A stretch of 64,000 bases of DNA, taken from Euglena gracilis (lineage: Eukaryota). Each line of letters opens with the position of its first letter. The stretch's first letter is position 1. The stretch lies in contig CP154954.1 in the NCBI GenBank assembly GCA_039621445.1, forward strand, positions 8,558,634 through 8,622,633. The letters run 5' to 3'. The position numbers and the translations under genes are program-made. Positions 31,676 through 43,600 of the stretch are shown piece after piece. Under the pieces are notes generated by a model that ran no database searches, was not told the DNA's origin, and saw nothing but the letters and a program-made list of their open reading frames with translations.

Positions 31676-34600
31676 ATGCCAGGCAGTCAAACCCGGAAGC
31701 AACCGATGACCGAATGTCCGGTTCCTCGCCTGCATTGGCCGGAGTGAAACGAAAAGCCGAGATATCACAGCACAATTGCCAAGTGTTTCTGACGTATGAG
31801 TTCCCCCCCCCCCCCGACACGGGCCGGGGCCTGCCGGGGCCGCCATGTCGTGGCAGGACCAGTTTGACGCGACGTGCAGCGAGATCCGCCGCATCTACAA
31901 CGAGGCGGCCAGGCGGCGGCCGGTGGTTGTGGGCAGGGTTTGAAGGAAGTTCGCCCCCCCCCCCCCCACTCCCCCCCCTGGGGGGAGTGGGTGCTACAGG
32001 CAGGCTGGGGGGGGTAGGGCACTTTTGGTCCGGGGGGGGGGGTCGGGTTCGGGGTGAGATGTGCTGAAGCACCCCCCACCCGGCCCCGAAAATGACCATT
32101 TTCAAGGAAAATTGCTTGGTCGGCAGGCACTGGGACCTAAAACCGACCCCCGGGGGGTGTGCCTGCTATGGGCAGGCGCCCCATAGCACAAGGCACCCAC
32201 TCCCCCAGGGTTGCAGGGTTGGTAAAAAGAAGCCTGGTATCCCCCCTTGACACACTTTACCGTTGACACCTACCCCTGTGTCAACAGCTTTTTTCCGGAA
32301 CAATACTTGAGGTTTTTTTCATTGAACGACAGTGTCATTGACACACCATGTCATTGACCCCCCGTGTCAATGGCACATTCCCTGAACATTGGTGTGTCTT
32401 GCACAAAGGGGGGAGGGTATGTATCTGTGTGTGTGTGTGTGTGTGTGTGTGTGTGTGTGTGTGTGTGTGTGTGTGTGTGTCGGAGTTTGTGTGTGTTGTG
32501 CTGTGCTGTGCTGTACTGCGTTGTGCTGTGCTGTGCTGCGCTGCGCTGTGCTGTGCTGTGCTGTGCTGTTGCGTTGCGTATGTTGGTGTGTGTGTTGTGT
32601 ATGAGTGTATTTGTGGGTGTTGTGTGCGTGCGTGCGCACACGTGCGTTGCGGCCCCCCGCCTGCCCCCGATCGAGCCCGTGGAGCGGCGGTTCCAGTACG
32701 AAGTGTTCCGGCCGAGCTGGTTCGCCGACACGCTGAAGTCCTCCAAGCCGTTCGTCCTCTTCCTCGGCCCCTTCTCCGCGGGGAAGTCCACGTTCATCAA
32801 CTACCTCCTCGGCCACGACTACCTGTGGACGGGGCCCCAGCCGACCACCGACAAGTGGACCGTGGTCGGGGGCCGGTGGTCCTCCCCCCCCCCCCATTTG
32901 CCCACCGACAACCGGCTGCAGGTGAGGGGTTTCATATGACCAACCCCCTGGTCTCCCGTGGCTTTCAGCAGTGTGACAGAATAGAAACCCCGGGTGGCTT
33001 CTTATTGGGGTGCTGGCATCGCCGACATTTCCCCTTGGTCGGCTGCACGTCGAAATGTAGCAACAATTCCGTCACACATGCTTTGCCATGCGTGGTTTGT
33101 CTGAAGTCTGGGTCAGCTAGGCCCTGCCTTGCTTCACAGCTTAAGGATACCTACCTCAGATTGCTGGGGGAGGGTATCGTGGTTTGTTTCCATGATTGTT
33201 GGGAGTTGAGAGTTCCGAGGACATTTTTCATTTGCTTGGAAATTCAATTTTTTTTTACCTAAGAATGCCTAATGCTCTTCTCTGTCTTTGGGCTACACTT
33301 TCCCACACTTTAGAGCCCCGTCATAGGTCTTTAAAAGATTACTACGACGATTCGTACTGGGTTCAAAAATACTTGGGAACTTGAAGCCAATTTTTGATTT
33401 ATATATTATAGTTGATAATCATTTCGATTAATTTTTGTATTTTGATGTTATATAGTATCCTTCATTTGGGCAGGAATATGCATTTTGCTATTGCAGTGTG
33501 CAATATTCTGGCAGTCGGCAGTCAGAAGGACGGGAACAACCCACAGCAGGGGCTTCCGGCCGGCCGCCCCCTCGCCCACCAGCCCCCGCCCCCAATCCTC
33601 CACGGCGGGGAGCAGGGCACGGTGTCCGGCCGCATCCTCACCTCCAACGCCGACATGCCGTTCCGCGGCCTGGCGGAGTACGGCAACGGCTTCCTGGAGA
33701 CGTTCACGGGCATGCAGCCCGGACCGTGCGTTTGTTGTTGTGTTGATCGTGCCTCTTTGATTTCTCCCAACTCTGGGAAAAATCAAATTTCTTTCTTTCT
33801 GCCTTTTTTTTTAGATCTTTCTCCTTCACCCTTTGTTTTGCATGCAAAAGTCTCATGCTCCGTTTTTCCCATGAGAAATTCTCTCTGCTTTTTGTGTGTG
33901 TTTTGTTTCGACCTTCCCCCATTTGTCCCACTTGCTGCGGTTGTTTTCGGATTTTTTGTTTTTCACTTTCTGCTTCTTGAGGGTTCTCCAGTGCAAACTT
34001 GTCAAACATCAAACAGCCCCACTGGTCCGGGGTATTATCCTGCCACCCATGGCTCATGAGCTTTTTCCTGATTCTCCTCGTAGGGCACTTGGGCAGGGGT
34101 CATGTGAAGGGCACATGGGGACACATGCCTACCCCACGTTTCTTTTCCCATTGAAGGCATTTATCCCTTGTCTTTGGGGGGGAAGCGTTTCGTATTTCCC
34201 CCCTCATTTTTGCTCATTTTTCCAAAATTATCAAAAAATGCGCTTTTTGCGCATTTTCAGCGGATTGTTGGGTTTTTCACATCCCCACCCCCCTGCGGGA
34301 CTTCTATGGAGTCCTGGTCCCCGATGGGATGGTTGTGGCTACGCATCCTGCGAATGGCGGCCCGCTCCCGGTCCCGGCGGACCTGCTGCGCAACGTGACG
34401 CTGATCGACACCCCGGGTGTGCTGGAGTCCGCCAAGGATGTCCACACCCGGAACTACGACTACATCAAGGTTGGCGCCACATGTCCTGAGTTTTACTTGT
34501 ACAGCCAGCGCGCGCACCCACCCACACTCACACCCACCCCCGCCCGCCCGCACCCCCACCCACACCCACACACACCCGCACCCACCCACCCACCCACCCA

Positions 34601-40600: not shown

Positions 40601-43600
40601 TCCTTGTAGTGAGGAAAGGTGATTCACCCCGTGGTTATTCTCAAACGTCAAAATCGGCAAAACCCGCCAACATGCCCGCAAACACTTACCGTCTCCCTTG
40701 CCCTCCCCACAAAAGGGGGCCCCCCGCGGACGGCGGCGGATTTCCCCAGCGCGGCGCAGTACAAGGCGTTCTTCGACAGTCCGCAGGTGCACATGTCGAA
40801 GTTCCCCAAGATGGCGGATTTGGAGAAGGAGGCGAAGAAGGGTGGGGAGAACATCCTGCAGAGGGCTCGGTCGCACCCCAGCGCTCCTCGTCGAACCTCT
40901 GTAGCACCACAGTCCAGATACCCCCCCCCCAATAATACCAAATCGTTTGCCCCCAAATTTAAAGCCAGCTGGCTTTATATATGAGTGGGATTTGAAGACC
41001 GTCCGGGGGTTTTTTGGGGGATTAAAATTTTCTGGGTGACGTACATAAAATTTGGATACTCGGGGTTGTATTATTTGGGGGGGGGGATTATTTCCGACCC
41101 TCCCTTTTAAAGGCGGGAAATTGTCACGTGGGTGGAATGCACTTGACAAATTTTTGGGTGACAACTTGCCTGGGGGGTGGGTGGGTGTGGCTCACTTGTC
41201 CAAACACAAGCTGCAAGGATGGTGATTGAGTCAAGGACTGAATGATTGAGTGGGAGGCAGCCATCCGTAGGCCCCTTCACGCCTCGCATGCTTCCCACCC
41301 TGCGACCTGGTCAGCCTCGCTGTTGCAAGCCCAAACCCCGCCTGGCGAATCCCTCTGCCAATGCACGAGGCTGCTCCCGGCCCTCCCCCCGAAACGCCTG
41401 GAACGGGTGATCCGCTTCGACCTCCCAAAGCTGCTGCAGCCACTGCGCAGGGCCGCCACCGGCACTGGCACTTGGTGGGAGACCACCATGGGGAGATTTC
41501 CAAAGCGTTTAGTCATTGAACCATGTCTTAAGCGTGTGATAGACACATCCCCCCCCCACCACAGCCTCCCGAAGCTGTATCCCATGCTCCTGCGCGCTTA
41601 CCTGGTGACAACTTTCGAGCACAGTGTTATAGTTGTGCGCAGTGTCCAAAATAATAACCTCCAAGTCCACACCCCATCGCAACATCGGTTGCAATGCCAG
41701 TTTTTTCAAATCTCCCAGCATCACACAAGAAGTTTTGAATTGATCTGTTGCCAGAAATGGAAGAAGAAGGCGGCTATTTTTGATTTGTGATTGTGAACGC
41801 TCACCCACTGCGGTCCGAAACGACCCTTTTAAACATTTTTTTTGATGGTGGTGGAGGTTTTCTGTAACAAGCAATGTTCTTTTCCAGTCCCTTCTTTTTA
41901 CAATAATTTTTTTTACAATCTACCTATGTATAAATATAATTCGGGCAGCCGAATTTGGGTCATTATAGTTGCAGGTTTGCATGCAATGAAACTTTACTGA
42001 ATTTAATCTCATGGAACGTGGTAGATGGATGACAGGCCCCGTGGCACGTGTCCCTTCCTTCCAGACCCCCACCCTGGGGCCCTGCCCGCGGCCCAGGCCG
42101 CTGCGGTGGACCCCCGCAAGGCGCGGAAGGAGAAGCAGGGGCAGAACAACGCCCCGCCGGACAAGCACCTATGAAATGACTGACGGCTGTGACTGGGATT
42201 GACCGGGTGTGACCGGGACCGGGTGTGACTGAGCGTGACCGGGGGCATGACCGGGTGTGACTGGGCGTGACCGGGTCTGGGACTGGGTCCAGGATTTGGA
42301 TGACCATAGGTGCTTGCCGCCGGACAAGGCCGTCTTCCTCGACCGCCTCGCAGCCTCCCAGATCCCCCACCCCGCCCACCCCCCAGCGGCCCCCGGGCCA
42401 GCCACCTCCAGCAACGCCGCCCAGCCAGGTGCCAAGGTCGCCGGGGGAAGTGATATTTGCCTCTGCGGGTCGGAGATTGAGGTTGGCAAGTGTCGCCCAA
42501 TTTGATGATGGGGCGGTGCCTAATTTGATGATGGGGCGGGGTGCCTGATTTCTTGATGGGGCAGTGCCTAATTTGGTGATGGGGCAGTGCCTATTTTGAT
42601 GATGAGGGGGGTGATACCTAATTTGGGCAGCAGGAGGCAGCAAGCGGGTTCCCAGGTTCCCAGTTGTCCACACCACACTGAAGCCTTGTGGACGGTTTCT
42701 AGTTGATGGCTCCTTCAACCGCACAGTTCATTCCCAACTAAGATTCTTGACCAAGGATCTGATTTGAGCCACCAAATTGCTCGGTGGTGTCTTTGAAACC
42801 TGATTTGACAGTGGTGGCGTTCCTTAGTGGCTGAGCTGGCAGATGAGTCCGCTGAAGCACGCCAACTTTCCACCCAGGTCCATTTTTGAATTTTTCGCTC
42901 CATTTCACCCAGGAAACACGGCAAAATCCTGCAACTTTTGTTGGATTAGGGGAGGGTGTGTCTTATTAATAGGAATCAGATTAGGGTTGCAGCCCTCGTT
43001 CAGGGAAAAAGTTAGGCCAGAAGTCAGGTACCAATTTCGGAAGATTTTTGGGAGCACACGATGCCTCCAAATTCATCCTCAATTCAGCTCAACTTGGTCC
43101 GAAATGGGGCCTAACTTCTTCCTAAACCACGAAAGATGGGAGCCCTTTGGCAGTTGAATTGCAACCCTAACCCTGTCCCCCGAATAACCCGAAACCTTCG
43201 CAGCATGGGACCAGGGTGGAATTTTCGGACCCTCCCCCCCTGGAGGAACTACAGGGACCCCCGGGGGGGGGCTACCATATATACTACCATATATACATAC
43301 CATATATATATATATATATATACATACATAAGTCATCTTCATATTCATATATACATGTACACCTATATACACATATAAACATTCATACATATACAGCTAT
43401 GTTTACGTTTATACATAATATGCGTATTTTCATGCATGTATGCATATAATTGTGCATATGGTACCCATATTGAGGCGTGTCCCGGGTGGGGTACCCCACG
43501 CCGTCCTCCCCACCTGGCCTCTGCCGCCATACAACCCCCGCCAGCCCGGCTCCCGCCCCGCCCCACCCGCCCCAGGCTGTCGCCCCCCCGGCCCCCCGGC

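Follow-up and report, generated by a model that had tools for sequence, protein, structure and literature searches.

In a 64,000-nucleotide stretch of Euglena gracilis DNA (assembly GCA_039621445.1, contig CP154954.1, positions 8,558,634 to 8,622,633 of the forward strand; hereafter the window), a gene for an EHD-like protein is interrupted by 14 nonconventional (NC) introns, and the last of these is, judged by its sequence, a transposon, namely a transposable element of the miniature inverted-repeat type (MITE) with a perfect 8-bp target-site duplication (TSD). Our overall reading, to which we give a probability of roughly 0.6, is that the NC introns of this gene follow the published euglenid splicing code and arose from MITEs resident in the genome that make 8-bp TSDs. 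Where euglenid NC introns come from has been a question since the 1990s, and the MITE hypothesis has so far gone without a named element.

The gene is identified from its sequence as a nuclear EHD/sarcalumenin-like dynamin-family ATPase, because exon 2 (window 32670-32861) is 100 per cent identical to EukProt EG_transcript_14648 (P0001, 388 aa), because the precomputed Pfam families of P0001 are PF00350, PF01926 and PF18150, and because its relatives carry the source names EH domain-containing protein or sarcalumenin. Exon joints were mapped over 31800-45400 with two contig runs (X1 and X2, guessed to be RNA) and two raw RNA-seq runs (X21 and X24) that bear the same species label as the window. 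Fifteen joints are listed of 56; 14 of these fifteen are introns of the EHD-like gene, each with at least three X21 reads, and the 15th (31974 to 37686) connects two copies of an intronic repeat. An earlier note on this DNA, made from the letters alone, had placed 16 introns in the core, 14 non-GT-AG and two GT-AG (34470-34803 and 34874-35637), and this partition stands: RNA joints back 14 of the 16 (both GT-AG introns and 12 NC introns), and its coordinates for 32864-33593, 36322-36926, 41445-42089 and both GT-AG introns match the joints within their ambiguity. The NC border test accordingly comprises 12 joints with RNA reads, one more through the protein P0001 and one that we infer (42159-42321). 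Intron 40858-41390 is not among the 15 listed joints and a contig piece stops at 40857; P0001 reads across the junction, which is therefore fixed. The introns of the core are as follows, with coordinates that coincide with the leftmost RNA placement of the joint unless another placement is given.

31907-32668, plus strand: NC intron 1; N3 GGC, stem CAGGCGG/CCGCCTG, N5 CCCCC; joint 31905 to 32668, ambiguity 2, 21 X21 reads; leftmost placement 31906-32667
32864-33593, plus strand: NC intron 2; stem CGGGGGCCGGTGG/CCACCAGCCCCCG; joint 32863 to 33594, ambiguity 0
33717-34369, plus strand: NC intron 3; CGG/CCG; joint 33716 to 34370
34470-34803, plus strand: conventional GT-AG intron; joint 34467 to 34802, GT..AG with the cut 2 places rightward
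34874-35637, plus strand: conventional GT-AG intron; joint 34872 to 35637, GT..AG with the cut 1 place rightward
35679-35947, plus strand: NC intron; CAG/CTG stem, then an 8-bp helix; joint 35678 to 35948, ambiguity 0
35999-36243, plus strand: NC intron; CAGC/GCTG; joint 35998 to 36244
36322-36926, plus strand: NC intron; CAGCGATG/TGTCGCTG; joint 36320 to 36926, ambiguity 1; leftmost placement 36321-36925
37002-37313, plus strand: NC intron; CCGG… 16-bp stem with 1 mismatch, outside the strict CDG code; joint 37000 to 37313, ambiguity 2; leftmost placement 37001-37312
37348-38078, plus strand: NC intron; CAGGG/CCCTG; joint 37347 to 38079, ambiguity 0
38152-39592, plus strand: NC intron; CAG/CTG; joint 38149 to 39591, ambiguity 4, the +2 register yielding +4/-6; leftmost placement 38150-39590
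39654-40278, plus strand: NC intron; CGC/GCG, outside the strict code; joint 39652 to 40278, ambiguity 1; leftmost placement 39653-40277
40323-40728, plus strand: NC intron; GGG/CCC, outside the strict code; joint 40322 to 40729
40858-41390, plus strand: NC intron; GAGGGC/GCCCTC; junction deduced from the contig end at 40857 and the P0001 reading
41445-42089, plus strand: NC intron; CAGGGCC/GGCCCTG; joint 41444 to 42090
42159-42321, plus strand: young NC intron, presumably spliced (contig depth and P0004); MITE plus one TSD = 163 nt; slidable over 12 nt

The geometry of the NC introns is real and far beyond chance. The earlier note had described a stem running from intron +4 to -6 in nearly all of them; when all RNA-compatible registers are tested, at least three contiguous Watson-Crick pairs stand at (+4,-6) in all 12 RNA-verified NC introns, and every other cell of the (p,q) grid is filled in at most 7 of the 12. 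A register-free measure gives the same picture, the total of unpaired bases being 8 in 12 of 12 verified introns and the runner-up total, 10, occurring in 8. With the two introns lacking an RNA joint included, +4 to +6 pairs with -8 to -6 in 14 of 14, and the downstream exon begins with a purine in 14 of 14. The helix triplet is CAG in seven introns, CGG in two, and CCG, CGC, GGG, GAG and CAA in one each. The stem sequences quoted in the earlier note were found as written, and of the stem starts that it held to be usable, CAG, CGG, CCG, CGC and GAG (with GGG in addition) occur in verified introns, CAA in the intron 42159-42321 alone.

None of this geometry is new, as it is already published in the form N3-CAG…CTG-N5, and 14 of the 16 core introns are ordinary euglenid NC introns. 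The accessible text of the genome-scale study of Nomura et al. (PNAS 2025, PMC12501133) gives a genetically defined code, 5'-N3CDG-/-CH'GN5-6|R, in which splicing is lost when the 5' spacer is changed by 1 nt either way, whereas the 3' spacer is functional at 5 nt and tolerates 6; the strict code holds genome-wide in 61.2 per cent of NC introns, and their origin is still called unclear. NC introns are further described as leaving the transcript later than the conventional ones and as being released in the form of full-length RNA circles (PMC11282704, as far as its text is accessible; for the circular RNA, Gumińska 2021 as cited there). The introns here share with those in the accessible descriptions the non-GT-AG borders, the 3-nt and 5-nt spacers and the purine at exon +1 (PMC12501133; Milanowski et al. 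2014, 2016), as well as the prevalence of CAG/CTG, the CGG/CCG variant and the frequent slidability of junctions (PMC12501133). Their geometry is identical, but five of the 14 carry triplets outside the published code (CCG, CGC, GGG, GAG and CAA), leaving nine within its strict CDG/CH'G form, and four of these five off-code introns are verified by RNA or protein.

A link between this geometry and transposition comes from the last intron of the core, at the site of which, within the coding sequence, lies a small TIR element. Its parts, and a second copy of the same family elsewhere in the window, are given here with their terminal inverted repeats (TIRs); none is assigned to a strand.

42162-42316: MITE, 155 bp; perfect 12-bp TIR CAAGCACCTATG/CATAGGTGCTTG
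42154-42161: TSD copy 1, CCGCCGGA; perfect 8-bp repeat
42317-42324: TSD copy 2, CCGCCGGA; followed by 4 nt more (CAAG), identical to the start of the TIR
872-1770: second CAA…TTG-family copy, 899 bp; flanks CCTTCCCC and CCCCCCCC, 6/8 identity

Homology between 42162-42316 and 872-1770 runs from the first to the last TIR base, give or take two C's. The copy at 872 assigns CAAG to the element, and the TSD of the coding copy is therefore taken as 8 nt. A match of 8/8 between flanks has a chance of about 6e-5 per intron. Applied to this element, the N3/N5 rule gives the intron 42159-42321, whose 163 nt are the element plus 8. Read without splicing, the open reading frame (ORF) ends at a stop at 42172 (…PPDKHL*); with the TIR-to-TIR segment and 8 nt excised, the ORF is restored and is read through by a homologue. 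This homologue, P0004 (649 aa), runs straight over the insertion site (…GQGNAPPDKSVFIQNI…, …NAPPDKSVF…), and the spliced ORF is collinear with its …GQGNAPPDKSVFIQNITDRQI… segment. When metagenomes were scanned for the CAA family's 18-nt 5' end, 10 loci came back, none with the remaining element or the 3' TIR, and these were read as chance matches.

Contig depth points the same way. With contig depths of 113 (X1) and 100.4 (X2), their product with exon length matches the depth seen in repeat-free bins. For the bin 41788-42241 the 69-nt exon alone predicts 17.2 (X1) and 15.3 (X2), with 16.9 and 15.3 observed; for the bin 42242-42695 an exon 42322-42428 predicts 26.6 and 23.7, with 26.9 and 22.2 observed. 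The depth thus fits the exon 42090-42158 followed by about 100-107 nt past 42321, with 42159-42241 uncovered, and a 961-nt X2 contig has 94 nt left over after exon 42090-42158 that fit the next depth bin only. As the match holds in both bins, the transcript contigs therefore skip 42159-42241 and resume past the element. Together with the logic of the ORF, this indirect evidence makes it very probable that 42162-42316 is spliced out of the mRNA, and the NC pathway would be the route of its removal.

The window also holds a larger family with the end sequence most common among the NC introns. The four CAG…CTG copies, with TIRs of 13-16 bp and likewise not assigned to a strand, are these.

11222-11646: CAG…CTG MITE copy 1; 13-bp perfect TIR CAGGGGTTTTTTA; TSD GTTGGGGG on both sides, 8/8
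24539-24991: CAG…CTG MITE copy 2; flanks ATGGCAGT and ATTGAATT, 5/8
46452-46751: CAG…CTG MITE copy 3; flanks CATGGCAC and CTTGGACC, 5/8
58635-59125: CAG…CTG MITE copy 4; 5' end CAGAGGTTTTCTTAAG (CAGAGG…); flanks CTCCCTAT and CTCCCCAT, 7/8

Counting both families, there are six copies at separate sites with homology stopping at the TIRs (two of the CAA family, four of the CAG family). Flank identity in the CAG family is 25/32 in register 8 (binomial P of about 3e-8 at p = 0.3), and register 8 is the best among registers 3-13 for all six copies (8, 6, 8, 5, 5 and 7 of 8). Among 494 perfect, non-low-complexity TIR pairs of at least 10 bp in the window, a perfect register-8 flank repeat occurs in two, 42162-42316 and 11222-11646, and none of the same 494 pairs has a perfect flank repeat in registers 6, 7 or 9-12. 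The suggestion in the earlier note that 3+5 = 8 equals the TSD length of TIR elements is thereby borne out for the elements resident here, at 8/8 and 6/8 in the CAA family and at 8/8, 5/8, 5/8 and 7/8 in the CAG family. A further TIR pair, 21626-24061, with 7/8 identical flanks, was set aside: the 3' arm falls within an exon-like ORF, following a conventional AG, and among 1314 pairs the match is a single one at the level of chance. The other flank matches of at least 7/8 are AT or TATG microsatellites. Directly behind copy 3, at 46752-46907, part of its interior is present a second time (80 per cent over 161 nt), perhaps as a tandem or nested insertion.

These observations suggest how such introns might be born. 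Under the published code, the helix between intron +4… and …-6 draws both intron ends together, and the transcript is cut at two places: the 5' cut lies 3 nt upstream of the helix, and the 3' cut lies 5 nt downstream of it, ahead of a purine. The 8 unpaired nucleotides would then correspond to the TSD made by resident MITEs with CAG…CTG or CAA…TTG ends. Where a MITE landed in an exon, cuts at helix-3 and helix+5 would take out the element and exactly one TSD copy, the frame would be restored without further mutation, and the insertion would be born as an intron. An 8-bp-TSD element with pairing ends would be spliceable at birth because these two cuts remove the element together with one duplicate. 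In old introns, where only the spacer lengths would be constrained, the intronic half of each TSD copy could have drifted to chance identity; the older NC introns may thus have arisen in the same way as 42159-42321. A resident set of MITEs with 8-bp TSDs, one of them in coding sequence, is what the MITE-origin hypothesis needs.

That hypothesis was proposed in 2013, when, as its authors noted, no transposon was known in euglenids (Milanowski 2014, PMC3935182). In the accessible text of that paper and of a later review (Mob DNA 2024, PMC11282704), the terminal inverted repeats of the introns are likened to TIRs and the short repeats at their junctions to TSDs, as they are here; those parts name no element family, TSD length or copy outside an intron, whereas the window holds two 8-bp-TSD families, one coding copy and the equality 8 = 3+5. 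The literature searched, supplements being outside the search, held no statement identifying an 8-bp TSD, or hAT, with the 3+5 nt, although the sliding-distance figure and datasets of PMC12501133 may bear on the point. The introners of Amoebophrya (PMC7789003; Huff 2016 as cited there) are similar non-autonomous TIR elements in genes, with direct repeats overlapping the exon/intron borders and, as here, inverted repeats (8-20 nt) that form a hairpin joining the exon ends. They differ in that their repeats are variable and 3-5 nt long and the spliceosome is assumed to remove them, while the repeat in the window has 8 nt and its cut sites are counted from the helix.

Several observations weigh against a MITE origin of these introns. 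We compared the 8 nt upstream of the 5' stem with the 8 nt downstream of the 3' stem against a permutation null, and the identities of the 14 NC introns in order were 2, 3, 3, 2, 3, 1, 3, 5, 4, 2, 2, 4, 3 and 8. Without the young intron there is no excess: the 13 older introns have 37/104 identical positions (permutation mean 34.5, sd 3.4, P = 0.28), or 24 against 22.0 (P = 0.30) with the two junction-adjacent positions dropped. The proposal of the earlier note that the unpaired 3+5 nt are the remnant of a TSD thus finds no recognisable trace in 13 of the 14 NC introns, and its expectation that identity would rise with stem perfection fares no better among the old introns, stem length and flank identity being uncorrelated (rho -0.003 with the young intron left out); by the criterion that the note itself had set, the proposal is refuted for the old introns. 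All four copies of the CAG…CTG family are at most candidate introns, and the survey covers one 64-kb window with one in-gene element. As to that element, the 15 listed joints do not include one for 42159-42321, whose splicing rests on the depth arithmetic and the ORF; its CAA/TTG triplet is outside the published CDG/CH'G code; and the direct repeat at 42154-42165 and 42317-42328 is 12 nt long (CCGCCGGACAAG), 8 nt outside the TIR and 4 nt equal to the TIR start, an overlap between TIR and target that may be chance (1 in 256) or target preference. Moreover, a persisting insertion in coding sequence must restore the frame, and an 8-bp TSD is therefore partly forced by selection. Loss of the TSD trace in old introns would be expected if the spacer is constrained in its length alone (PMC12501133). 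Each compared position sets a coding base against a free intronic base, and even intergenic CAG-family copies are down to 5/8.

The same null result can be turned into an argument that the distances came before the transposons. In that case the 3 nt and 5 nt would be a structural property of whichever enzyme carries out NC splicing, unconnected in history with transposition, and the agreement with an 8-bp TSD would be a coincidence or a filter through which only elements with an 8-nt TSD survive in exons. However the measure arose, insertions can be retained in an exon only if the frame is restored. We regard this as possible, though on the doubtful side. It is in keeping with the missing TSD trace in the 13 older introns, with the 3' spacer tolerating 6 nt (PMC12501133), and with a preference for pyrimidine-purine at both junctions (9/13 at the 5' and 11/13 at the 3' junction of the older introns) that looks like one of an enzyme; judging by these counts, the preference alone could account for the slidability of most NC introns. 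However, it leaves two independent matches to be explained, in length and in end sequence: several TSD lengths are common, so that under pure coincidence 8 is just one among them, and the commonest triplet, CAG…CTG (7/14 introns), also forms the ends of the MITE family that has four copies and 8-bp TSDs within this 64 kb. A similarly tentative alternative is that a minority of NC introns came from MITEs while most were conventional introns that gained terminal pairing (the first hypothesis of Milanowski) or were gained in another way, so that the old spacers were never a TSD. A transition of this kind is in print (PMC3935182, in its accessible part), and the 13 older introns have neither a TSD trace nor a second copy of their ends in the window: in a self-BLAST of the 16 introns, microsatellites and C/G-run palindromes aside, 42159-42321 alone has one. 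Yet a mixture of origins sits poorly with the fixed +4/-6 geometry common to all 12 verified introns, and the absence of a trace loses force if spacer length alone is constrained, two of the four CAG-family copies having already decayed to 5/8.

It might also be held that 42162-42316 is not spliced at all but is a recently inserted element that cuts the protein short at the stop at 42172, the depth pattern being an artefact of assembly. Its absence from the listed joints, the off-code CAA/TTG (PMC12501133) and the fact that the unspliced ORF ends there would agree with this, as would the tail peptide (42323-42502), which had no match in a search against longer proteins. We think it improbable, given that two runs lack contig cover of 42159-42241 at transcript depth and have some 100 nt at that depth past 42321, that the 94-nt remainder of the X2 contig fits only the next depth bin, and that the ORF continues in frame with homology to P0004.

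Should the 8 nt of the two spacers together be the TSD of the resident CAG…CTG elements, the idea of a MITE origin would yield a sharp prediction that can be counted on existing assemblies: flank identity would peak at register 8, both among young introns and among intergenic members of the families concerned. Transposon family and splicing system would then match each other to the nucleotide. A more far-reaching version, which we offer as speculation rather than as a likely outcome, is that NC splicing is precise excision at the level of RNA matched to one class of DNA transposon, with cuts that sum to the 8-bp stagger of a hAT-like transposase and with every exonic CAG…CTG MITE insertion silent from birth. 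Were that true, it would explain why some 70 per cent of Euglena introns are NC and why they have been gained so often.

Elements of the hAT superfamily have 8-bp TSDs, TIRs starting with YARNG and a target consensus of nTnnnnAn, and an autonomous copy encodes a transposase with a BED finger, a DDE core and a C-terminal dimerisation domain. The MITEs in the window are hAT-like candidates: like hAT MITEs they have an 8-bp TSD, and the ends of the four-copy family, CAGGG and CAGAG, fit YARNG. Unlike them, the CAAGC end fits four of the five YARNG positions and CCGCCGGA misses nTnnnnAn. If they are hAT elements, an autonomous partner would sit between CAGGGGTTTT… ends. A Pfam search of 10 of the ORFs of at least 110 aa in the window, for a transposase or neighbouring genes, gave no match, and no report of hAT in Euglena was found in the literature searched. 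Merlin elements, the one kind of DNA transposon reported from E. gracilis with 8-bp TSDs, have TIRs that, in the accessible text of the report, terminate in 5'-GG-3' (PMC8101967). The elements here end in CAG… or CAA…, that is CA…TG, and do not fit Merlin.

Beyond the core the gene probably has a low-complexity tail, which the earlier note had assumed. A proline-rich exon-like piece at 43527-43724 has a contig depth of 21, compared with 113 for core exons, and resembles the PPQGYPP tail of P0004. The tail example of the earlier note, outside the mapped stretch, has its stems as written.

51664-52419, plus strand: candidate NC intron in the tail; N3 AAA, stem CAGACTGTG/CACAGTCTG, N5 GGTCT; flank identity 2/8

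A close paralogue of the gene is expressed (P0002, EG_transcript_25672; 92 per cent identity over exon 2), and one contig departs from the window sequence at 32856. Single-base differences separate the window from all or most RNA reads or contigs at 32702, 34418, 34966 and other positions, the change at 32702 being A>G in every contig; T>C is the commonest class, and these look like differences of strain or allele.

Several introns contain palindromic repeats of C-runs and G-runs (…CCCCCCTGGGGGG…, GTGACTGACTGG…), at 31954-31978, 37700-38020, 39260-39520 and 39740-39850. Contig depth over them reaches hundreds to thousands in RNA-like runs, chimeric joints connect their sites, and short stretches of them are also present inside the CAG…CTG MITEs; they may represent a transcribed repeat of very high abundance. 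Microsatellites of the related types (TG)n/(CA)n and (CCCA)n, which cross-match at 75-90 per cent, lie in introns and spacers at 32411-32582, 34500-34708, 45327-45600, 50700-51200 and 61450-61620, and there is a long repeat at 45462-45593. Finally, a long tandem repeat at 22075-22670 with the translation (VVWCG)n, in a block (22001-24000) with a GC skew of +0.25, sits between the exon-like ORFs 21496-21620 and 24003-24150 of a gene without a Pfam match.

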